This document shows positions 16,859 to 60,632 of a stretch of DNA of 64,000 bases, in pieces. Under the pieces are notes generated by a model. The model was not told the origin of the DNA. It made no database searches and worked only from the letters and a program-made list of their open reading frames with translations. Position 1 is the stretch's first letter, and each line of letters begins with the position of its first letter. A program made the position numbers and the translations under genes. The stretch lies in contig JBHLLT010000007.1 in the NCBI GenBank assembly GCA_048938855.1, forward strand, positions 34,063-98,062. The letters are read 5' to 3'. Source of the DNA: Promethearchaeota archaeon. GTDB lineage: Archaea > Asgardarchaeota > Lokiarchaeia > Sigyniarchaeales > SOKP01.

Positions 16859-18586
16859 ATGTCGACAAATCTAGGAGAAGAAGATATTTTAAGAAAAAAA
16901 GTGTGGAAAATCATTAATTTAACTCAAGCTAATCAATTATTTGTTCACTATAAAGATTTGAGCATTAAGTATTTAGATAAAAAAAATAAAAAAGTCAGTA
17001 CGAAAAAATTACCTGAAATATTGTCTTTATGTGTCTTGAACGCAATAGTTCCTAATTCTGCTATGTTATTATATGGGGGCCATGGAGGAGGTAAAACTAC
17101 TCTTGTAAAGCTTCTAGGAAGGATGTTTACGGCAAGTTCACTAAATACCATAGAAAATTCTATTATTAGAGGTCACCCTCAATTAACTGAAGAGAAATTG
17201 ATTGGGACACTTAAATTAGGAAAATTAATGAAAGAGGGAGAGGAAGAGGTTGTATGGAGACAATTTGTCACAAATTTTTGGAAGATCATTGATGAAGTGA
17301 ATCGATTGACACCTTATGCACAAGATATTCTCTTATCATTATTAGCTGAAGGTACAGTTAAATATTACGATTCATTAGCAACTATTAATAAATTTTGTTT
17401 ATATGCAACGATAAACCCTAATGACATTGGGACTTTTGAACTATCTCAACCATTTCTAGATAGATTTGGAATCTCTGTGCCTATTTCAATGCCAGGAAGT
17501 CATGATTTACAACTAATATTAACTGGTAAAGATGAAAAATACTCAGGAATGGATGAATTAATTCAGGTTCCTAAAATTCTAACTATTGATGAATTAATGG
17601 AGATCTGGTACTATGTAAATAGAATAGTCTTTAATCCTGAAGTTAACAATTATATCCATGCAATTATAAGAGAATTTACATTATGTTCTAGGATAGACAA
17701 AGGTAATACAACAGATTTAAAACCAAGTACGGGATTGTGTTCTGGTTGCCATTTCAATACAGCTCAGAATATTTGCAATAAAATCGACTCAATTCTAAGT
17801 GTAAGAGTTGCAAAGGATTTATTGAGATATTCAAAAGCTTTAGCGTGGTTGTTAGGATTAGAAAAGATTGATGTTAATATTGTAAATACAATTGCACCAT
17901 ATGTTATTTCACATAGGGCTTTGTATGTAAAAAGAGAACTAGATTCGTCACCCTATTTTGGAAACCGATATGAATTTTCTAAGAATATTTTAACAACAAT
18001 TCAGAAAAGGTTTAAGAATCGAGAACTCTGCTACAAAATAGCAGATAGGTTCCGAGGAGGGAACCCTAAAGAAAATGATTTAGCAGAATTGAAGAAATTT
18101 GAAAAAAGTGATTTAATTGTAAAATATGATTTAATTCCTTTCGTAAACTCCGTGAATATTAAGGAATATGCCCCTATTGCCCTACAAATACAAGGAGCAG
18201 CAAAAAATGGGGATATTGTTAGTTTAGCTGAAATTCGAAATAATTTGTTAGAGAAATTGGATTTTCCTAATAGAGGGGATTTAATTGAGTGGTGCAATCG
18301 AGAGCTTTTTAGGCAAACAGTTACCGATTATATCTTTAAATACAATGACTGGAAGGAAGTATGGGCAGACATAGCGACTGAATTTTCTAACTTAGACCAA
18401 CCATTGAAAGAAGCATTTAGTAAAAGACAAACTAAACAAATCCGAACTGAAGATATGCTAATTGAGATTAATGTTACTGGAACCAAAGAAGAATCTTTAG
18501 TAAACATACAAATTTCTGGAGGTTCTGAAGCCTTGAAATTAAGAAAAATTCTAGATAATTTTGATTATATACAAAAAGAAGAATAA
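16859..18586 (+). CDS. MoxR-family AAA+ ATPase
   Basis: Walker A GGHGGGKT, Walker B IIDEVNR, ATINP, FLDRF and sensor-2 SVR. Confidence 0.9.
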   Translation: MSTNLGEEDILRKKVWKIINLTQANQLFVHYKDLSIKYLDKKNKKVSTKKLPEILSLCVLNAIVPNSAMLLYGGHGGGKTTLVKLLGRMFTASSLNTIENSIIRGHPQLTEEKLIGTLKLGKLMKEGEEEVVWRQFVTNFWKIIDEVNRLTPYAQDILLSLLAEGTVKYYDSLATINKFCLYATINPNDIGTFELSQPFLDRFGISVPISMPGSHDLQLILTGKDEKYSGMDELIQVPKILTIDELMEIWYYVNRIVFNPEVNNYIHAIIREFTLCSRIDKGNTTDLKPSTGLCSGCHFNTAQNICNKIDSILSVRVAKDLLRYSKALAWLLGLEKIDVNIVNTIAPYVISHRALYVKRELDSSPYFGNRYEFSKNILTTIQKRFKNRELCYKIADRFRGGNPKENDLAELKKFEKSDLIVKYDLIPFVNSVNIKEYAPIALQIQGAAKNGDIVSLAEIRNNLLEKLDFPNRGDLIEWCNRELFRQTVTDYIFKYNDWKEVWADIATEFSNLDQPLKEAFSKRQTKQIRTEDMLIEINVTGTKEESLVNIQISGGSEALKLRKILDNFDYIQKEE

Positions 18587-18602
18587 ATGAAAAAACTGTA
18601 AG

Positions 18603-20321
18603 ATGTTTCAAGTAAGAAAAAGAAAAGGAAAGGGTAATAAAAACCATCTAACAGAAAAGGAAAAGAAAACAATAGAATTAGCTAACATCGCTTGGAGCAA
18701 GACATTAAAAGAGTTTTATTATCCTCCTTTAAACGATCCCAATTATGTATTTGATTATACACATTTAGAGGGATTTTATATCGATCCCGAACACCGCTGG
18801 CAAATTACTATGAATCTAGCTAATACACCAATATTAAAAGATGATAATGAGTATATTAATTATTTTTTCATAATTTCACTTCATGAAGTATCCCATTACC
18901 AAATTATCCCTTATGATGGCCTCACACACGCCAGATTATTAAGAGCCGCTATAACTCAGCTAAATCAAAATTATGCCCCAATTGTTGTAAATATTTTTGC
19001 TGATTTGATTATTGATACTAAATTATATCGGAAATATACGAGTCTAATTGAATGGGAAATTACTAAGACTTATAAACATCTTACTTCTAAAGGACCTCTT
19101 AGTGATTTTAGTAAATTCCTATTTAGAACTTACGAAAAAATGTGGAAAAAAGAGGTAATCAATGATAAGAAGCTTAATGAGATGGATTCTTTAGCAGAAA
19201 GAGTTGCAAAAATAATCCTTAAGGATTTTGAAGATGAATCAACTTGGGAAAAAAAGGTTTCCCAAGTCGCAAGATCTTTGAAGAGTTTAATACAAGATAC
19301 CTTTACTTTAATAGGTACTGGTGGAGTAATAGATAAAAACAAAGAGAAGAGAAAAAGTCCGGAAGGTGCATATATCGAAATCCCTAAAGATGTACTCGAA
19401 ATAATGGATAATCCTTTAGAAATTAAAAATACAGACAAATTAAAAGAGGGAAATGAAGAAGATTTAAGAGCAAAATCAGAGGAATTTGCGAAAGATATTC
19501 CCTACTCTGAGTTTGGTGGACCTGCGCGTCAATCTGGTATACTAATTGACGGAAATCCATTAGCTACTTGGTATCGAGGATTAGCTAAAAATTTAATTCA
19601 AATAAAAATTTTTGAAAATAAACCTGGGGGTCAATTACCTATTTATCCAGAGGTTTGGCGGATTGGGGATAGAATAGAAGAATTAGATGTAGTTCAGAGC
19701 TTATTGAATAGTCCTATAATAATACCTAACATCACTACAAGAAAATGGACGTATAAAGAAGGACCAGGAAATCTAGTAGAGAAAGAGATTCCTGATTTAC
19801 TAATTGTTTTAGATTCTTCAGGATCTATGAGTTGGAATTATTCATCAAGAACAACAAGAGAAAAAGGTCAATATCATACTGCTTTAGTAGCTGCCTTCGC
19901 TTCTTTACATTATGTTGCAAGTAAAGGAGCAAAATTTAGTATAATTAATTTTTCCAATAAAGCAGATATTTGTAATTGGACCTCTGATTATAGGAAAGCC
20001 GAAAATATTTTATTAAGGTATCAAGGAGGTGGCACATTTCTCCCAATTAATGAAATCACAAGTCAGTGTGAAAAAACAGAAAAAAACGTTTTAGTGTTTA
20101 TAATTACCGATTTTGGAATATATAATTGGGGCAAAGCGAAAAAAACTATACTAAATCTAACTCAAAAAGGGCATAAATTAGTAGGCTTTTTCATAGGATC
20201 TAAGAAAATTCCCAAAGAAAAATTTGGAAGTTTATTAGATAAAGTTAAATTTTACGGGATAGGTAATTCCAAAGATCTTATTAACTTAGTCATTAAAGAA
20301 GTTCATAATTATTATTCTTAG
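18603..20321 (+). CDS. VWA-domain protein with N-terminal HEXXH metallopeptidase-like region (MoxR partner)
   Basis: LHEVSHY...NIFADLIID; C-terminal MIDAS LDSSGSM, GGGT and ITD. Confidence 0.88.
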   Translation: MFQVRKRKGKGNKNHLTEKEKKTIELANIAWSKTLKEFYYPPLNDPNYVFDYTHLEGFYIDPEHRWQITMNLANTPILKDDNEYINYFFIISLHEVSHYQIIPYDGLTHARLLRAAITQLNQNYAPIVVNIFADLIIDTKLYRKYTSLIEWEITKTYKHLTSKGPLSDFSKFLFRTYEKMWKKEVINDKKLNEMDSLAERVAKIILKDFEDESTWEKKVSQVARSLKSLIQDTFTLIGTGGVIDKNKEKRKSPEGAYIEIPKDVLEIMDNPLEIKNTDKLKEGNEEDLRAKSEEFAKDIPYSEFGGPARQSGILIDGNPLATWYRGLAKNLIQIKIFENKPGGQLPIYPEVWRIGDRIEELDVVQSLLNSPIIIPNITTRKWTYKEGPGNLVEKEIPDLLIVLDSSGSMSWNYSSRTTREKGQYHTALVAAFASLHYVASKGAKFSIINFSNKADICNWTSDYRKAENILLRYQGGGTFLPINEITSQCEKTEKNVLVFIITDFGIYNWGKAKKTILNLTQKGHKLVGFFIGSKKIPKEKFGSLLDKVKFYGIGNSKDLINLVIKEVHNYYS

Positions 20322-50516: not shown

Positions 50517-52970
50517 CTAAATAGGAAAATTTTTATTTTTCTTCTCTGAAAATACATTTTTCCATTTAACTATCTGTTTTAAAAGCTTTTGAGTGTCTGG
50601 AGCGTTATTTAATTGTTCAGTATATAGAGGATAATATTTATATAAATTATTTAATACTTCTTTCCAAGACTTTTGCATTTCCGATGTATCGGGGATCTCT
50701 TTCTTCAATTGAAAAATACTTCTTTTTTCTCTCTTTGCTTTTAAAGCCTTCAAAAAGTTTTTAGTAATAGATATTCTAAAGTTGGAGTATTCATCAGGTC
50801 TGAAATTTGCTAGTGCATAACACATTTCTTCATCACCAATAGGGAAAAACATTATTTTTTGGTCTTCAGGTTCATCAGGGTTATCAATTTGAGTTATTTC
50901 TATATCTATATTACTTAATTCCTCTAAAATGGAGTAAATTTCTCCGGGATTCATTTTTAATCGTTTTTCAATTTGACCAGAAATAACAGAAATTGGAAAA
51001 GATATTTCAGTTAGCTTTTCTGGATTTTCAATTCGATACATAGATTCTTTTCTTACAATTTGTTTAATTTGATCAATCACACTTTTAGAGAATCTAGCTT
51101 CAGTAAAGGTTATTTGAGTATCTTTTAATTTACGCTGATGGATTTCTTTCTCTTTTTCTTTTTTAGTATAATTAGCTGTGAGTGAAGAAATGAAACTTTC
51201 AGTAGGTTTATCAGTATCTTCTCCTGTACTCAATCTACTAGTTTTGCTTCTCTTTTCTAAAGCTGTTTCAAATAATCTTTCACTAAGATATTTCCTTGCT
51301 TTTTGTTGAGCGACTCCTTTCTTTTCAAAACGTTCAGTAACAGATACAAAATCAATCATTTTTATAGGTTTACCAAGTTCTTTCTTTTCCTCCGTTATCA
51401 AAATGTCCATATCTTTCTTTGCCAATTGATCTAAGAGAGCATATACATTATTCTTTGATAATTGAGTAGCTTTTATTAATTCTCTTTCTATGATTTCAAT
51501 AGGAAAAGCTTCTCCTCTCCTAATATACTCTCCTCGTATTATTTTGTAAACACGATCCATGCCTCTTTCCTCCTCTGTGACTGTTTCTTTTTGCAATCTC
51601 ATAAACATTGAGGTTTCTTGAGGTTTAAGATAATAGATCAATAATGTACTCCCTAAGAAAAAGATCATTAGCACAGAAATTATGTATTTATCTGCCATTA
51701 AAAAAATCCCAATATCAGATATTTCCTGATTTGGTACTTGAATATTTGGAGAGAGAGTAAAACGTGTTAGTGTTTGAGCAAAAATACAAGCTAAACATAA
51801 CAAAATCAGACCATCTTTTTTAAAGAAAAGAATTCTCCAGCCTAGACTTCTACCTAACTTTCGAACAATTCTATATAAAAAATACATAGAAATAATGAAT
51901 TCAAATATAAATACGTATGACACTGCTGAACCAGTTGCCCCAATTGTCGATTGAAAGGCATCTATTGTGGGATCTTGGAGAAACATATAAATACTTATTT
52001 CCATAATTTGAAAGAAAAAGATAAAGAATACTATTAAGGAAAAGGTAAAATTATCAAACGTCCCTGCTCTTTTGGTTCCTGCCCGACTTCTTGAAAATAC
52101 ATATTCAAAAATGATGAATATTAATGTCATCACTAAACTGAAATAAATTAATGGCATAACTTGGCGCATTTGGATATTAAACACCAGTACAGCATCACTT
52201 GGATCAATTGGACCAAAAATATCTAACGATAACCATACTAAGAGACTTCTGTAAAGCAATGATATTACAACAAGAACTCCTAATATAAAAAACGGAATTA
52301 TCATAGCAAATAAACGTCTTGGCATTGAATATTTTTTGATAAATCTTGATTCTATTTTTGTAGCAAATTTTCTTGAATAAATATAAAATCGACTACTTAA
52401 CAAAATCAACCATATCATTGCTAATGTAAGTAAATAAGTTAATAAGTTGAAACTTGTACCAATATATAGAAAAAGCATATACAATAATGCAATTAAAGTA
52501 CAATATAATACTAATTGTTTAATAACAGATTTATCCTCGAAAATAAATATTCTTACTTTATCGATGCTAAATAAAAAAGATAACACCAAAAACAAAGCTA
52601 TAATCGTGTTTGAAAACGCAAATGGATTCCCGAGCATTAAATATTGAATCCATCTGCTCTCTGGAACATTAATTGCTATAATTAAAATGAGCGAATAGAA
52701 GATAAAAATCCCATACAGCCCCCAAAATTTTTTCTCAAAGGAATAGGATTTTGGTTCTTTACCATCAATATATACTTCTTGATGTATAATTTTGTCATAA
52801 AAGTTAGTTTTAACTTTTGATTTTAAAGTATTTAGCTTTACTCTCTGTCTTGAAACAAAGTTATTAACCTTATATTTTCCACCCAATTTTCCCGGTCTTG
52901 AGAGTTTAGGCAATTTTAATGGTTTAAATTCCTCTTTTTTTACCGTTGTTTCTTTTTTATCTTCAGACAT
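50517..52970 (-). CDS. Large polytopic membrane protein with cytoplasmic C-terminal wHTH-like repeats
   Basis: About 11-13 hydrophobic segments followed by roughly 370 soluble residues containing two similar helical repeats. Confidence 0.8.
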   Translation of the reverse strand: MSEDKKETTVKKEEFKPLKLPKLSRPGKLGGKYKVNNFVSRQRVKLNTLKSKVKTNFYDKIIHQEVYIDGKEPKSYSFEKKFWGLYGIFIFYSLILIIAINVPESRWIQYLMLGNPFAFSNTIIALFLVLSFLFSIDKVRIFIFEDKSVIKQLVLYCTLIALLYMLFLYIGTSFNLLTYLLTLAMIWLILLSSRFYIYSRKFATKIESRFIKKYSMPRRLFAMIIPFFILGVLVVISLLYRSLLVWLSLDIFGPIDPSDAVLVFNIQMRQVMPLIYFSLVMTLIFIIFEYVFSRSRAGTKRAGTFDNFTFSLIVFFIFFFQIMEISIYMFLQDPTIDAFQSTIGATGSAVSYVFIFEFIISMYFLYRIVRKLGRSLGWRILFFKKDGLILLCLACIFAQTLTRFTLSPNIQVPNQEISDIGIFLMADKYIISVLMIFFLGSTLLIYYLKPQETSMFMRLQKETVTEEERGMDRVYKIIRGEYIRRGEAFPIEIIERELIKATQLSKNNVYALLDQLAKKDMDILITEEKKELGKPIKMIDFVSVTERFEKKGVAQQKARKYLSERLFETALEKRSKTSRLSTGEDTDKPTESFISSLTANYTKKEKEKEIHQRKLKDTQITFTEARFSKSVIDQIKQIVRKESMYRIENPEKLTEISFPISVISGQIEKRLKMNPGEIYSILEELSNIDIEITQIDNPDEPEDQKIMFFPIGDEEMCYALANFRPDEYSNFRISITKNFLKALKAKREKRSIFQLKKEIPDTSEMQKSWKEVLNNLYKYYPLYTEQLNNAPDTQKLLKQIVKWKNVFSEKKNKNFPI

Positions 52971-53457: not shown

Positions 53458-54825
53458 TTAGGTTAAATTTCTAAATTCTGTTATAATTTTTTGTAGTTTA
53501 TCAAGTAGTATTCGAATTTCTGAGTAATTTTCTTTAAATGGGTCTAGTTCAAGGCTTAATTTTTCAATTTTCTCACTAATATTACTCTGGAATGGATTTA
53601 GTGTTATTTCGATTTTCTCTTCAATTTCTTGTGTGAAAATTTTTGTTTGACTCTCTAGTTTATTAAGATGCTCATCTAGTCTATCTATCATTTCCTCAAT
53701 TTTATAGTAGATTTGGGATGTTTCCTCCAATTTAGAATTTGTTGAATCAGCTGAAGCTTCTAGTTCCAATTCGATATTTTTAACTTTATTTTCAATAAGA
53801 TTCTTTAAATTATTAACAAGACTTTGTTTAACTTCTTTTATGTGTTCGATAACTTGTCTATGATCTTCAATTCTAATATCTACATAATTAGTAATTTTAT
53901 TTTTAGAATCATATACTTTTTCATTTAGTGTTTTTTTAAACCAACCACTTACTTTCAAGAGTCCTCCAATTACCGCCTGTTTCATCTTGTCTATAGCATC
54001 AACAATGAATTCTGTACCACGTGAGCTTCCCTTTTCCATATCATTTATCCAATTTCCAAATTGAAGTTGAATTGTATTCATAAAGACTTCAGAGAATTTT
54101 TCTGATCCTTGCTTAAATCCAGAAATTATAGAATTTATCTCAGGATACTTTTCAATCTCCTCTTCAATTGGTTCTTGTGTTTCAGAAATAGGGATTTCTT
54201 GCAGATTACCAGGGGTTGTTTCAACAATTTCGTTAACTTCTTTAATTAGAATAGGATCTTTTTTCTGAAAATCTTCCATAAATTTTTGAATCCATTTAAA
54301 ATACTCTAAAGAAGAAGGAATTTCAATTTCATATGGAACGCTGGAATATTTATCTTTTTTCGTAAAATTTTCTAATCGAAAGATATCAAATCCAAAATCT
54401 CCTGCCAATCCCATTAAAGTGTGATCAAAAACTATACAAACACCTTGAGGACACTTCTCATTTTGGAAATATTGATGATTTGCAATTGTGACATCAGTAA
54501 AATCTAACCCCCAGCTAGGTCTTGAAATATACCACCCAACTAATGATTTTTTGTATTGATTTTCTATCTGTTTAATCAATTCAATTTCATTTTTTGAAAA
54601 CCCTACTGATACTGGTGTACCATGCATAACAGGAATTGCATTCTCTATAATTAGCGTTCCATCAACTGCATTAAAGTTTCCTAAACAGACACCCATAACT
54701 TCTTTACTTTTTTCTAATGCAGTGCTCCCAAAACGTAGGACATGAGTTAGCATATTTCTGAATGCTTCTTTCTTAATTAAGACTTTTTCTTGAGTAGAAT
54801 TATCCTTAGTTATATTTTCAGCCAT
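53458..54825 (-). CDS. Catalytically inactive MPN (MPN-) domain protein with long coiled-coil tail
   Basis: MPN fold cues KEVMGVCLG, IENAIP, LVGWY and CIVFDH, but the JAMM motif is replaced by I-S-R-x7-T-x2-T. Confidence 0.88.
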   Translation of the reverse strand: MAENITKDNSTQEKVLIKKEAFRNMLTHVLRFGSTALEKSKEVMGVCLGNFNAVDGTLIIENAIPVMHGTPVSVGFSKNEIELIKQIENQYKKSLVGWYISRPSWGLDFTDVTIANHQYFQNEKCPQGVCIVFDHTLMGLAGDFGFDIFRLENFTKKDKYSSVPYEIEIPSSLEYFKWIQKFMEDFQKKDPILIKEVNEIVETTPGNLQEIPISETQEPIEEEIEKYPEINSIISGFKQGSEKFSEVFMNTIQLQFGNWINDMEKGSSRGTEFIVDAIDKMKQAVIGGLLKVSGWFKKTLNEKVYDSKNKITNYVDIRIEDHRQVIEHIKEVKQSLVNNLKNLIENKVKNIELELEASADSTNSKLEETSQIYYKIEEMIDRLDEHLNKLESQTKIFTQEIEEKIEITLNPFQSNISEKIEKLSLELDPFKENYSEIRILLDKLQKIITEFRNLT

Positions 54826-54829
54826 TTTT

Positions 54830-56311
54830 TTAATCTCCTCCTTTTTCGAAGTTATTTAATTTCTTCTGTAGTTCTTCTTTCTCCTCTTTTAATTCTGCGA
54901 TATTTTTTTGAAGGGTTTTATTTTCAACTTGTAGTGTATCAAGTTTATCCTGTATTGGATTTTTTGAACTTTCTAAAAGTATTATTGCTGCTTTTAAATC
55001 TGAAAGAAAACTTTTTGAATCTTTACCAAGATTAATAAAATTTCCAATAATTTTGTTTAGGTTTTTATTATAAGATTCGGATAATTCATCAAATTCTTTT
55101 TTTAATATATTCAGAGTTGAATCTTCAATTATATCGATGCTATTTTTCAAATTTTCAATGGTGTCAATTTTTTGCTCCAGGTTGTCAGAAACTTTTAATC
55201 CTTTAGTATTAATCGCTGTTAATTTATCTATATTCTCACTAATATTATTTAACAATTTAAGCATAATTCCCTTTATTTGTTGTTCAAATAATACATTAAA
55301 TTGTTCTTCAAGGTCTGTTTTAATTTGATTAAATGAGTTTTTAAAAGCCTCCTGATTGGTGTCAAATTCTTCAAATTTATCATCAACATACATTTCTAAT
55401 TCATTTAATTTCTCTCCCAATGAAAATTTAAAATCTTTTTGCAAACCTGAAATACTGCTACTGAGAGCATCTTTTATTTTAATTATATCTTTTCTCATTT
55501 GGAGATTATTTTCTACAGTATTTCTAATCAAATTTTCACTCCATTTATTTAGAATTGAGAATATTGGGTTAAAGGATAATTCTAAAAATCCCATTAAACC
55601 GTTTTTAAGCGAATCAATGATTAATGAGGTGTTAAATTCCGGTTTTTCAGCAAAAATTTGACTTTCACTTGGAAATGTAATATCTCCAAATATGTCAGGC
55701 ATTTCATTAATCTCTAATATAGGCAACTCTTTAGAGTGAACAGAATTAATTAATTCTATTAGTCTTAGATAATATTCAATACTATCAGGAGGTTCTACGG
55801 TCGCTTTTACTTCATGATACCCTGACATTTGACCTTTATTAGGATTATCCAATCTGAATGTACGAAATCCTAATTCTCCAGGTTTTTCTAAAAAGGTATG
55901 ATCAAAAACTATACCAATTGCACTTGGAAATGGAGTTTGCCACCCAAGTTGGTTTCGAATATCCGTTGAAGAAAAGAATATATCAAGTCCGGGATGAGAA
56001 TGATACCATCCACAACTAAACCATCCTTTTTCTGCATATTTCTCATCAACTGTACTAAATGTTATATAATCTTCGGGAGCAAAAGCAACCTCTATTGCTC
56101 CACCATGAGAAATCGGAACAGCATCCTCGATGATAACATCCATTATTCCCTTTTTATCAGGTTCACCATCTATATGACCAATAAGAATACCCATTACCTC
56201 TTTAAATTGCCTTCGATCTCTTGCTTTATTACCAAAACGGAGAACATGGAGGAGCATTTTATAGTAAGCATCAGGTTTAATAATTATACTTTTCTCAGAG
56301 GGCAAAATCAA
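54830..56311 (-). CDS. JAMM/MPN+ metalloprotease (Rpn11/CSN5-like) with long coiled-coil tail
   Basis: KEVMGILIG; GWYHSHPGLDIFFSSTD (intact H-x-H-x7-S-x2-D); GIVFDH and GFRTFRL. Confidence 0.93.
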   Translation of the reverse strand: MILPSEKSIIIKPDAYYKMLLHVLRFGNKARDRRQFKEVMGILIGHIDGEPDKKGIMDVIIEDAVPISHGGAIEVAFAPEDYITFSTVDEKYAEKGWFSCGWYHSHPGLDIFFSSTDIRNQLGWQTPFPSAIGIVFDHTFLEKPGELGFRTFRLDNPNKGQMSGYHEVKATVEPPDSIEYYLRLIELINSVHSKELPILEINEMPDIFGDITFPSESQIFAEKPEFNTSLIIDSLKNGLMGFLELSFNPIFSILNKWSENLIRNTVENNLQMRKDIIKIKDALSSSISGLQKDFKFSLGEKLNELEMYVDDKFEEFDTNQEAFKNSFNQIKTDLEEQFNVLFEQQIKGIMLKLLNNISENIDKLTAINTKGLKVSDNLEQKIDTIENLKNSIDIIEDSTLNILKKEFDELSESYNKNLNKIIGNFINLGKDSKSFLSDLKAAIILLESSKNPIQDKLDTLQVENKTLQKNIAELKEEKEELQKKLNNFEKGGD

Positions 56312-56449: not shown

Positions 56450-57094
56450 TTAATGGGGTAATCTTTTTCCGCAGTAAGGGCAAAATCGGAATCCTAAGTC
56501 TTTACCGCAAAATGGGCAGAATTCACCCTCTGAGTCCACTTGTGCTGGTTCGGGGGCACCTTCTTTTGGAATAGACGGTAAATTTCTTGTTGTTTTAAGA
56601 GTTGGAGCTGAATCTTGCGCTTCAGTTTTTCGTTCTGCAATTGCTGCTTTAAAAGCTTGTCGTTTCTCTTCCTCTATTTCCGTTTGAGTTTTAGATTCTT
56701 CTGATTTTACCCATCCTTGAACTTGAGGCCTTTTTAATTCATTTCCAGGAACACCCGTTAATTCAACTTCTTTGGCTTCGGTTACGGTGGGTATCATCTT
56801 CTTTTCTTCCTTATTCTTTATTGCTTGTTTGACTAAAGCTTGAGTTGTTTTCATTATTTGATGTGGATTGATATTAGGAATAGCTACAGTTCTAAGTACC
56901 CATCCTACAATAATATTTTGATTTGGGAAATCACCTTGAACATCTTCATCTTTGAAAACATATGAATCGATTACATCTTTTCCTTTTAATAGACGTACTG
57001 CCCATTTTTCATTGATTTCTCCTAATTGTATTCTATAACTTGTACCTGCCACACCCAGTTGGGAAGAAAGGGGCACAAAGCCAATTTCAGCCAA
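56450..57094 (-). CDS. Hypothetical protein with low-complexity linker and C-terminal double zinc ribbon
   Basis: TTG start behind AGTGA; ends FCPFCG...FCPYCGKRLP. Confidence 0.85.
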   Translation of the reverse strand: MAEIGFVPLSSQLGVAGTSYRIQLGEINEKWAVRLLKGKDVIDSYVFKDEDVQGDFPNQNIIVGWVLRTVAIPNINPHQIMKTTQALVKQAIKNKEEKKMIPTVTEAKEVELTGVPGNELKRPQVQGWVKSEESKTQTEIEEEKRQAFKAAIAERKTEAQDSAPTLKTTRNLPSIPKEGAPEPAQVDSEGEFCPFCGKDLGFRFCPYCGKRLPH

Positions 57095-57346: not shown

Positions 57347-58300
57347 ATGATTATTATTCCTAAAAAGGTATATCTAACTGTAGTAGCGGCTTCAGTCAGA
57401 TTTGCCAATGCGCGTATTCCAAAAGATGATTGGTTAGAGGTTAGTGGAATTTTTACAGGTCGAAATGAAGCTGATGATGTAATTATTTCAGAAGCTTTCC
57501 CTATTATGCATCAAGAATTAGATAAAGACGCTGTGATTGATCAATATAAATGGTCAGATGAAGATTATGAAGCGACATATGTTATTGACGAACTAGCTTT
57601 CTCAAAAGATCCACCTGATTTTGTAATTGGATGGTGGCATTCACATCCCGGATTTAAAGTTATGATGAGTCATATTGACATCCGTACTACTCTCTCTTAT
57701 CAACAAAACAATCCATTAGCAATCTCTCTCGTTTTTAACCCTACAAGATTAATTCGACAAATTGAAGTAGCTGATAAAAAAGGAGATCCAGATAAACAAT
57801 TAAAAAATGATCCCGGTTTTAAAATATTTCGATTAGATGATACAAATCGAGGTATAGAAGCCTCCTATCATACAGTAGATTACAAAGTTGAAGGATATGA
57901 CAGTATAGAACAATTAGTTACTTTAACTCAAAAATTCATAATTGATATTACAAACTTTTTCCCTAAAAGCAACGTACCACAAACTTATGAAAAATTTGTA
58001 GATAGCAAAATAAATGAATTTAATTCATTGTTTATGGGCACCGAAGAATATCTGACTACATTAACTCGTCGTGGTGAAAACATTAGGATTCCTGAAGTTT
58101 TAAAAAAACAAACTCAAGAAATTCGAAAGTTTGTGGCAGAAACTTATGTTAAAATTGAGACTATTAAAGAATTCATGAATTACTTAGAATTTAAAGAAAG
58201 AGAAACAATAATTCCTATGGTTGAGAGTATATTGCATAGATGGGATGAACTCGTGGCGGGCTTAGATAAAAAATTAAAAAACCTCTCAAAGAAATTCTAG
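57347..58300 (+). CDS. JAMM/MPN+ metalloprotease with helical C-terminus
   Basis: LEVSGIFTG; GWWHSHPGFKVMMSHID (intact JAMM); SLVFNP and GFKIFRL. Confidence 0.92.
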   Translation: MIIIPKKVYLTVVAASVRFANARIPKDDWLEVSGIFTGRNEADDVIISEAFPIMHQELDKDAVIDQYKWSDEDYEATYVIDELAFSKDPPDFVIGWWHSHPGFKVMMSHIDIRTTLSYQQNNPLAISLVFNPTRLIRQIEVADKKGDPDKQLKNDPGFKIFRLDDTNRGIEASYHTVDYKVEGYDSIEQLVTLTQKFIIDITNFFPKSNVPQTYEKFVDSKINEFNSLFMGTEEYLTTLTRRGENIRIPEVLKKQTQEIRKFVAETYVKIETIKEFMNYLEFKERETIIPMVESILHRWDELVAGLDKKLKNLSKKF

Positions 58301-58427: not shown

Positions 58428-60632
58428 ATGAAAAAAATAAACTTCCCTTTCACAGCAATACTCGGACAAGACAAAATGAAAATGGGTTTAATATTAAATG
58501 TTATTGATCCTCAAATTGGAGGGATATTATTAACCGGACATCAAGGAACTGGGAAAAGTACTGCTGTAAGGTCTCTCGTAGAATTAATGCCTCAAATCGA
58601 AGTTATCACTGGTTGTGAGTTCTCCTGTGACCCTAATTCAGATATTGATAATTTATGCCAGAATTGTATTGAGAAAAAGGAAAAAGGTAAAGTTGATACA
58701 GAATTTAGGGATATGCTATTAGTGAATCTCCCGTTAGGAGTAACAGAAGATATGGTTTGCGGTAGTTTATCTATAGATAAAGTTTTAACAGAAGGAATTC
58801 GAGCTTTACATCCTGGATTATTAGCAAAAGCTAATCGTGGTATTTTGTATGTAGATGAAATAAATTTACTACAGGATCATATTGTTGATGTTTTGTTAGA
58901 TTCTGCAGCTTCAGGAGTAAATATTATAGAGAGAGAAGGTATATCTGTATCTCATCCTTCAAGATTTATTTTGGTGGGATCCATGAATCCTGAGGAAGGT
59001 GATTTGAGACCTCAAATTGCAGATCGTCTAGGATTAGAGGTTACAATAAAAGCACCACGAGATTCAGAATTAAGAGCAGAAATAACTAAAAGAGTGATAG
59101 AATTTGATGATAATCCGAAAGAATTTATTAAAAAATATGAAATTGACCAGGAAAAATTAAGAAATAAAATTATTAATGCTCGAAAAATTATAAAAGAAGT
59201 TCAGATTCCTAGCTCTGTTTATGAATTTGTATCTAAACTTGTTAATGAGTTGGAAATATTTTCACAAAGAGCAGATATCACTTTCATTAGATGTGCTAGA
59301 GCTCATGCTGCTTTAAATGATCGAAAAACCATAGTTCAAGAGGATTTAAATGTAGCAATGGATTTAGTATTTGAACACAGAATCCAATCACTTCATTATG
59401 AATTAACACCTAAAGAAATAAAAGCAAAGATTGCTGAAGTCTATGGAAAAATCAAAGAAGCTTATGAAAACACACAAATCCTGCTACCAAACAGAGAAAC
59501 AGAAGGGCCTTTAAAGCATAGTGATGAACCTCAAAATGAATTCAAACGTCAATCTGTTGATCCCGATAAAGTTGATATTCCAGAATCTAAAGAGCAAAAA
59601 TTACCTCCTCCTAAATATCCGGATAATCGACCAAGGAGTCCTCGACCTGCAGGAGGATGGAAAGTAAAAAATATTCCTCTTGATGAGGATATCAAATTCT
59701 TCGAAGCAAAGAATTCATCATTACCATTTGTGTATAAAATGGAAAAAAAGATGACATCAATTTTAGATAATATTAGAAAAGACCGAAAAATATCTGATTA
59801 TGGTGGAAGAGGAATCGGAAGAAGAATCAAAATATCATCTTCTCAAAAAGGCCGATATATATCATATAGAACGCCAATAAGGGATGAGCCAAAAAGTATT
59901 GCTTTAGACGCTACAATTAGAAATTACTTAAAAAATTCTGTATATAATAAAACTGAAATAGATTTTCCTATACATTTCAATAAATATGATTTAATGGATA
60001 AAATTTATGAATATCGCGCTCCTCTGGCTCTTTTTTTTGTATTAGATAGTTCAGCATCTATGTTTTATGTAATAAAACAAATGACCGATGTAATCCTTTC
60101 TCTTCATAGAGAAGGATATAGAAAAAGAGATAAGATCTCATTAATTGTTTTTCGGGGTAAAAAAGCTGTCGTATTACAAAGGCCGACAGTTAATTTTCAA
60201 ATGGCTATTAGAAAATTAAAGAAGCTTGAAGGAAAGAGTTACACCCCCATGGCCTCAGCGTTAAAAAAAGTGTCTGAACTAATAAAAACAGAAAAATTAA
60301 AGGATAGAAATATTATACCTATTGTATTTATTTGTAGCGATTGCGGAGCAAATATCTCTGTTAAGTATCCTGATTTGATTGCTCAAGTAGAATCAGATTA
60401 TGTTTTGATCACAAAAGAATTAGAAGGATTAACAAAAAAATTGTCAAAACAAAATATTCACTTAGTTGTGCTTGAACCGAAAAAATCCTATGCTACACAG
60501 GCTCTCGGTGTGCATACATATTCTGCAGAGCAGATTAAAAGGAATTTCAAAAAGTTTGGCAATGCTTCAATTTATAAATTTGATAAGTATAATCCATCTT
60601 CTTTAGTATTGGAATTAAAAAAGATTTTGTAA
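58428..60632 (+). CDS. ChlI/ChlD-like chelatase-family AAA+ ATPase with C-terminal VWA domain
   Basis: FPFTAILGQ, GHQGTGKST, PGLLAKANRGILYVDEINLL, EREG.S, NPEEG, a Pro-rich linker, and MIDAS LDSSASM with TP and SD. Confidence 0.9.
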   Translation: MKKINFPFTAILGQDKMKMGLILNVIDPQIGGILLTGHQGTGKSTAVRSLVELMPQIEVITGCEFSCDPNSDIDNLCQNCIEKKEKGKVDTEFRDMLLVNLPLGVTEDMVCGSLSIDKVLTEGIRALHPGLLAKANRGILYVDEINLLQDHIVDVLLDSAASGVNIIEREGISVSHPSRFILVGSMNPEEGDLRPQIADRLGLEVTIKAPRDSELRAEITKRVIEFDDNPKEFIKKYEIDQEKLRNKIINARKIIKEVQIPSSVYEFVSKLVNELEIFSQRADITFIRCARAHAALNDRKTIVQEDLNVAMDLVFEHRIQSLHYELTPKEIKAKIAEVYGKIKEAYENTQILLPNRETEGPLKHSDEPQNEFKRQSVDPDKVDIPESKEQKLPPPKYPDNRPRSPRPAGGWKVKNIPLDEDIKFFEAKNSSLPFVYKMEKKMTSILDNIRKDRKISDYGGRGIGRRIKISSSQKGRYISYRTPIRDEPKSIALDATIRNYLKNSVYNKTEIDFPIHFNKYDLMDKIYEYRAPLALFFVLDSSASMFYVIKQMTDVILSLHREGYRKRDKISLIVFRGKKAVVLQRPTVNFQMAIRKLKKLEGKSYTPMASALKKVSELIKTEKLKDRNIIPIVFICSDCGANISVKYPDLIAQVESDYVLITKELEGLTKKLSKQNIHLVVLEPKKSYATQALGVHTYSAEQIKRNFKKFGNASIYKFDKYNPSSLVLELKKIL

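Follow-up and report, generated by a model that had tools for sequence, protein, structure and literature searches.

Can an archaeon build the paired arrangement of a catalytic (MPN+) and an inactive (MPN-) protein on which several eukaryotic complexes rest and, if so, is its pair ancestral to theirs? The question is raised by two adjacent genes, here designated A and B, in a 64,000-nucleotide stretch of DNA (the window) from a Promethearchaeota archaeon (Lokiarchaeia, Sigyniarchaeales; assembly GCA_048938855.1, contig JBHLLT010000007.1, positions 34,063 to 98,062). MPN+/MPN- dimers form the core of the proteasome lid, the COP9 signalosome, eIF3 and the BRISC and BRCA1-A complexes; to our knowledge, the MPN+/MPN- transition in eukaryotes is ancient and its intermediates are gone. 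The initial annotation of the window took A and B for a heterodimeric deubiquitinase or scaffold, either ancestral to or convergent with these complexes. Our analysis makes it fairly likely that the two proteins are co-translated and form an obligate heterodimer, with A as a zinc isopeptidase acting on ubiquitin-like tags and B keeping helices alpha1 and alpha4 and the stalk of A in place; the catalysis of B would then be dispensable.

The genes and their elements are as follows (window positions; aa, amino acids; nt, nucleotides):

54830-56311, minus strand: gene A, 493 aa, TTG start; MPN+/JAMM domain (about aa 6-195), linker and helical stalk (aa 229-489)
56198-56200, minus strand: catalytic E38 of A
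56090-56092, minus strand: Ins-1 E74 of A
55961-56002, minus strand: intact JAMM motif of A, H104-x-H106-x7-S114-x2-D117 (motif reading and orthologue alignment)
54845-55627, minus strand: stalk of A (AlphaFold and periodicity analysis)
54835-54841, minus strand: Shine-Dalgarno-like GGAGGAG within the last codons of A, preceding the gap and the ATG of B
54826-54829: gap of 4 nt between A and B
53458-54825, minus strand: gene B, 455 aa; MPN domain without zinc ligands (E42 kept), linker and helical stalk (aa 228-454)
54487-54696, minus strand: mosaic active-site segment of B (about aa 44-113, ends approximate), siding with a distant dead clade
54487-54528, minus strand: dead JAMM motif of B, with I100, R102, T110 and T113 aligned to H, H, S and D of A
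53464-54144, minus strand: stalk of B, matching that of A in register

A conserved pair with a variable second active site

Gene A possesses what marks a JAMM/MPN+ protein, i.e., the catalytic glutamate, the H-x-H-x7-S-x2-D motif and the MPN fold. Gene B of this genome has the MPN fold with I100, R102 and T113 in place of the three zinc ligands, only E42 remaining. Both match the Pfam family JAB above its cut-off and are 28% identical across 405 aa, tails included (E 2e-36). The initial annotation had described two co-oriented paralogues 4 nt apart, a ribosome-binding site inside the end of the first gene, an intact JAMM site upstream and the loss of all three zinc ligands downstream, and all of this is borne out; the helical tails are likewise present in both proteins, and their length, given as 250-290 aa, is corrected to about 260 aa (A) and about 230 aa (B). 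The dead motif of B is not an assembly error, because contigs from other studies carry the same letters: one is identical across 54371-54600, where the motif lies, and a further one runs across the A/B junction plus the motif. GGAG or GAGG is found close to 89 of 112 A/B junctions (a raw count without a chance baseline), and promoter and terminator scans, made with a bacterial model, stayed at chance level. The host genome (3.95 Mb, 30% GC) encodes seven MPN proteins.

The pair is conserved and coupled, as had been proposed: in 117 genomes, drawn from three families within a single order of the Lokiarchaeia, A lies directly next to B. None of the near-complete genomes examined has only one of the two genes; both are missing from two single-contig genomes of the order. 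Two near-complete genomes without A and B are also without the neighbouring membrane gene and were left out of this co-loss evidence; the region there is probably unassembled or deleted whole. Family f3 and other orders of the class possess single-copy, intact JAMM-stalk genes, several of which adjoin genes for E1, E2 and a protein with von Willebrand factor A (vWA) and RING domains; their region behind the MPN domain gives a weak but in-register match to that of A. No long-tailed tandem MPN pair was found in a sample of 36 genomes of other Asgard families.

Some loci have an unusual layout. In one genome (G032, L082:4494-13356), full-length A and dead B are separated by about 6 kb of other genes. 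Two f2 genomes (L073:4195-6271 and L074:531-2634) have a second, shorter pair A'/B' of about 370 and 334 aa with A' intact and B' dead in both, the entire pair being duplicated. A tandem of two short MPN proteins, both dead, stands beside a gene for 675-814 aa in L068:3447-4839 and L105:2615-3890, and in G107 this tandem lies directly upstream of A-B. In L120, L121, L113, L126 and kin (G106, G128, G108, G131), which are filed in the genus of the window, A and B group with genus g4, possibly by transfer of the whole operon. Finally, two loci titled Ca. Hermodarchaeota (L031, L035) carry the cluster at 60-73% identity and may be mislabelled bins.

The JAMM site of A is intact in every orthologue where it can be read. 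Apparently broken A genes turned out to be locus edges, contig ends or runs of N; one A gene (L229, G040) has a single in-frame TGA at a conserved tryptophan just past the motif, which is a sequencing error or a nonsense change. Of 124 B orthologues, 43 have an intact site; in the other 81 it is broken, with 32 residue patterns, so that B as a family is not an inactive one. Genus g3 and three of the four main copies in f2, which branch earliest, are among the intact ones. Of 121 near-full-length copies, 23 retain the zinc ligands while the catalytic glutamate has been replaced, mostly by glutamine, and 55 are without zinc ligands. On trees built without the motif columns, B changes its state at least 8-10 times, and the change of His102 to Arg recurs in separate clades. 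The dead copies are nevertheless full length (422-471 aa in the aligned set) and are kept across whole genera. For the MPN domain, dN/dS has a median of 0.14 in dead B (16 dead pairs), 0.17 in intact B and 0.09 in A, and this domain evolves about 1.6-2 times faster in B than in A. In this genome, B can thus be regarded as a pseudo-enzyme retained by selection, in line with the initial annotation. Furthermore, of 66 zinc-competent B copies, 61 have the Ins-1 glutamate (B73, corresponding to A74), versus 15 of the 55 others, which suggests that intact B sites are used, although among independent pairs the two features changed in the same direction in five, in opposite directions in none and not at all in two (p 0.06, not significant).

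The dead site of this lineage has a different affiliation from the rest of its gene. Outside aa 62-125 of B, the four genomes that carry this dead motif form a group with three intact-B genomes (support 100/99); inside aa 62-125, the same four group with a distant dead clade (100/98). When imposed on the other segment, each grouping is rejected by approximately unbiased (AU) tests (p 2e-4 and 2e-6). The distant dead clade is favoured by 12 of 13 informative sites in aa 44-113, by 0 of 40 sites after this segment and, in gene A, by 1 of 99 (permutation p <= 0.002); elsewhere in B and throughout A, the affinity is to the close relatives carrying intact B. On the simplest reading, recombination probably introduced the dead site.

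The dead site may, moreover, have a new job, such as binding a tag or another protein, with live and dead sites being selected alleles exchanged by recombination. We take this to be a serious possibility that stops short of being probable; it is compatible with the heterodimer proposed above and would extend it. Besides the mosaic site counts and both AU rejections, it is favoured by the dead motif itself (aa 97-117), 71% of which is invariant across 13 genomes versus 25% of the rest of the domain, by the interleaving of dead-B and intact-B genomes on the A tree and by the recurrent His102-to-Arg change. On the other hand, the mosaic segment was picked after the pattern had become visible, synonymous sites across it are near saturation, only weakly consistent and add little, and strong convergence may formally be another source of the mosaic pattern.

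The predicted heterodimer

AlphaFold predicts for each protein an MPN domain, a flexible linker and a single continuous helix. By fold, the MPN domain of A is closest to Rpn11 (Z 17.8, root-mean-square deviation 2.8 over 158 residues), which B matches as well (Foldseek E 2e-12). Both stalks have an 11-residue periodicity in their first 80 residues and end in a near-heptad one (in A, 3.67 in aa 229-310 and 3.55 in aa 400-490), and the two share one register, with an offset of +2 at each anchor examined between A229 and A400. At 0.15 nm per residue, a stalk would measure about 35-39 nm. Comparison of the stalks by fold returned generic long helices only.

A complex model of A(5-345) with B(10-346) reached a score of 0.73, compared to 0.00 for the best of three controls; the mark applied to this score is passed by 58 of 80 solved complexes and by 2 of 110 mismatched pairs. 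At least 89% of the contacts are common to the runs, and the predicted local distance difference test (pLDDT) value of the partner is at least 76. In the model, contact is made by alpha1 and alpha4 together with a coiled coil of parallel helices (A 254-338 against B 259-340). Of six conserved sites specific to one paralogue, four fall within this interface (p 0.018). The proposed prokaryotic MPN+/MPN- heterodimer is upheld as a model, with a eukaryote-like interface of the heads and an in-register coiled coil, although its passing may reflect likeness to solved dimers. Apart from the score, the abutment of the genes, the stalk register and the interface sites lend modest support to the pairing.

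We propose the following course of events. A single JAMM-plus-stalk gene, whose product was probably a homodimer, would have been duplicated in tandem inside one order of Lokiarchaeia to give A and B. The two proteins would be translated together and form a parallel heterodimer, whose MPN heads, related by a pseudo-two-fold axis, meet via alpha1 and alpha4 and whose stalks zip into an in-register coiled coil of about 35 nm. A would act as a zinc isopeptidase, most likely stripping ubiquitin-like tags; indirect hints of such a substrate are the ubiquitin-like proteins and E2s encoded in this genome and the E1, E2 and vWA-RING genes beside single-copy relatives. The active site of B would be dispensable because B is kept as the structural partner of A, and hence free for loss or reuse; depending on the lineage it is intact, changed from Glu to Gln or without zinc ligands. 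In the lineage of the window, recombination most likely put a dead B site in the place of a live one.

Alternatively, A and B could form separate homodimers, or the pair could be mainly a structural rod or tether, B being unneeded for the catalysis of A. Indeed, the single-copy relatives must function without a partner, the Rpn11 homologue of Caldiarchaeum subterraneum (CsRpn11) is active as a monomer in solution (PMC6043591), and A and B are apart in G032. Furthermore, the stalk makes up more than half of each chain, and 39 of 62 B proteins have apolipoprotein-like Pfam matches below the cut-off. However, separate homodimers would leave the conserved abutment, the common stalk register, the paralogue-specific interface sites and the joint absence of A and B from complete genomes without an obvious reason, and we consider this alternative unlikely.

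Several points weigh against a heterodimer with a dispensable B site, and against its separate origin, which is discussed below. Activity and binding of both proteins are predictions. B is fully intact in 35% of the relatives, so that the term pseudo-enzyme fits lineages rather than the family. The A-B model may pass for its likeness to solved MPN dimers and not for binding; A-A and B-B stood outside the comparison, and close cousins of a true partner pass as well (10 of 12 in the tool's own test). The interface test is built on six sites only. The pair lies outside the ubiquitin operons, whereas two other JAMM genes of this genome are inside them. Finally, an AU test on about 180 columns does not reject a grouping of A with eukaryotic Rpn11 (p 0.18).

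Relation to known MPN systems

In the BRCC36-KIAA0157 complex, an active and an inactive MPN head are arranged about a pseudo-two-fold axis on alpha1, and the C-terminal helices are joined (PMC4579573). The A-B model resembles this complex and BRCC36-Abraxas in using alpha1, alpha4 and a coiled coil. It differs from them in that each tail is a single helix of 230-260 residues rather than part of a short bundle, in that A and B are 28%-identical sisters from a recent duplication, and in that the partner B is still live in a third of the genomes; there is also no BRCC36_C match in A or B. With Rpn11-Rpn8, CSN5-CSN6 and eIF3h-eIF3f the pair shares the logic of a paralogous heterodimer, and both MPN domains find their best matches, by sequence as well as by fold, in Rpn11 and CSN5. 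The Ins-1 glutamate of B, which tracks the zinc ligands, recalls Glu104 in the Ins-1 of CSN5 (PMC4822132), from which it is about two residues off by our reading of the alignment. However, A and B are not orthologous to these proteins in the best tree. Neither the Pfam search of A and B (E <= 0.1) nor a list of 25 families obtained for 62 B proteins contained RPN11_C, CSN5_C, BRCC36_C or MitMem_reg. A credible set of PCI subunits, as present in the PCI complexes, did not emerge from the search of this genome, which gave one marginal match of 24 bits; control genomes also score.

Among archaeal proteins, CsRpn11 is the best PDB sequence match of A (E 4e-11). It has the same catalytic motif, and the host of A possesses a ubiquitin system too. 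CsRpn11, however, is a monomer of about 200 aa encoded in a ubiquitin operon, whereas A is long-stalked and coupled to a partner; the paper describing it states that the MPN+/MPN- heterodimer organisation is not known in archaea (PMC6043591). The operonic JAMMs of the present genome are other genes (contigs C49 and C58). The single-copy JAMM-stalk proteins of families f3 and f5-f7 have the layout of A and B and a weak in-register similarity of the tail, but are encoded by one gene, always intact and without a tandem partner, and probably represent the state before duplication. A literature search, which left most subscription journals outside, revealed no description of the A/B pair.

In trees of the MPN domain, A and B are sister clades (SH-aLRT 95-98) adjoining the single-copy f3 genes within a lokiarchaeal expansion. 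In the best tree, eukaryotic Rpn11 groups with small JAMMs encoded in operons of TACK and other Asgard archaea, among them the C49 gene of this genome, and starred branches separate it from A. Homologue searches for eukaryotic MPN- proteins returned archaeal JAMMs and Rpn11 only. Note that Rpn11 represents the eukaryotes in this tree, while CSN5, Rpn8, CSN6 and Abraxas were compared through profile-to-PDB scores and, like BRCC36, lie outside it. As early-branching B copies are live, B was inactivated after the duplication, and Rpn8, CSN6 and Abraxas cannot owe their inactive state to that event. B is thus sister to A, with intact early members and many separate losses, and one ancient inactivation common to B and the eukaryotic MPN- proteins (which stand outside the tree) is not what we find. 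Despite a design like that of Rpn11-Rpn8 or BRCC36-Abraxas, the pair is therefore not counted among these families. Of the two origins that the initial annotation had left side by side, ancestry to the eukaryotic complexes thus gives way to convergence: on the best reading, the pairing arose separately in these archaea.

That A and B are nonetheless the ancestors or orthologues of Rpn11-Rpn8, CSN5-CSN6 or BRCC36-Abraxas appears very improbable. Such a descent could appeal to the modelled head geometry, which matches the eukaryotic dimers, to the AU result given above, to the dead-B profile, which gives yeast Rpn8 36 bits versus 17 bits for the A profile, and to weak matches of the Abraxas MPN model in 5 of 62 B proteins (best E 0.009). 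But the same dead-B profile ranks Rpn11 and CSN5 best (49 bits) and exceeds the A profile by only about 4 bits for human Rpn8, and relaxed motif columns would raise its Rpn8-type scores anyway. Moreover, A and B are mutually closest, tails included, early-branching B is intact, Rpn11 groups with the small operonic JAMMs, and a long-tailed tandem pair is missing from the 36 genomes of other Asgard families. Eukaryotes are, in addition, placed closer to Heimdallarchaeia than within an order of Lokiarchaeia.

That B is a redundant, decaying duplicate is hardly credible: many independent losses, some long branches and the faster evolution of B would fit it, but full-length dead copies with a dN/dS of about 0.14, kept by whole genera, largely refute it. 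An intact MPN- gene in relatives, as a sign of recent decay, had been named by the initial annotation among the outcomes that would refute its reading; this outcome is partly borne out, as such relatives do exist, down to the earliest branches, but simple decay is not.

More tentatively, the family may preserve a living series of steps, from a single gene through a live/live pair and a Glu-to-Gln partner with its zinc kept to a dead partner, the partner site being a swappable live/dead cassette whose two forms are each selected and pass from one related species to another; the dimer would thereby switch between two active sites and one active plus one binding site. More than 100 natural archaeal pairs span each of these stages, and with them one can ask whether heterodimerisation preceded the catalytic loss and what a dead partner contributes. 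The origin of the lid or the signalosome is not thereby shifted back into archaea, and the pair cautions against counting an Asgard 'Rpn8-like' gene as eukaryotic inheritance.

Genomic neighbourhood and ubiquitin system

The pair is surrounded by the following genes:

50517-52970, minus strand: membrane protein, 817 aa, about nine hydrophobic segments, no Pfam match; conserved neighbour
56450-57094, minus strand: protein of 214 aa with a C-terminal zinc ribbon, co-oriented upstream of A; conserved neighbour, also in a genome without A and B
57347-58300, plus strand: gene C, a third MPN+ protein (317 aa, one open reading frame) with intact JAMM and a short helical tail; separate clade
58428-60632, plus strand: ChlI-type AAA+ domain fused to vWA, directly after gene C in most f1 loci examined

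Gene C, which had escaped the initial annotation, lies about 1 kb from A and is syntenic across the family. The membrane protein, whose C-terminal part looks winged-helix-like by eye, adjoins the pair throughout family f1 and in a single f2 genome. Its gene was rejected as an obligate partner, and so were gene C and the zinc-ribbon gene, each of the three being found in genomes without A and B as well. Together with the AAA+-vWA fusion, a possible unfoldase partner, they are candidates for what the stalk holds at its far end.

Ubiquitin-like proteins and E2s are present in this genome, as confirmed by family search, and two operons combine a JAMM gene with E1/E2-like genes (C49, 126764-132122; C58, 20425-22402). 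The C49 operon includes genes for ubiquitin-like proteins; a closely similar ubiquitin-like protein encoded on C66 ends in Ala-Gly, not Gly-Gly. JAMM domains fused at either end to long helical repeats occur in several lokiarchaeal families (L098, L100, L102, L103, L104, L106) and in this genome (C34:67661-69247); the repeats of L098 and L106 are tetratricopeptide repeats by Pfam. Elsewhere in the window, inspection by eye suggests a methyltransferase fused to an ATP-grasp ligase domain (35064-37046, plus strand) and, at 16859-20321 (plus strand), a vWA gene preceded by one for a MoxR-like AAA+ protein.

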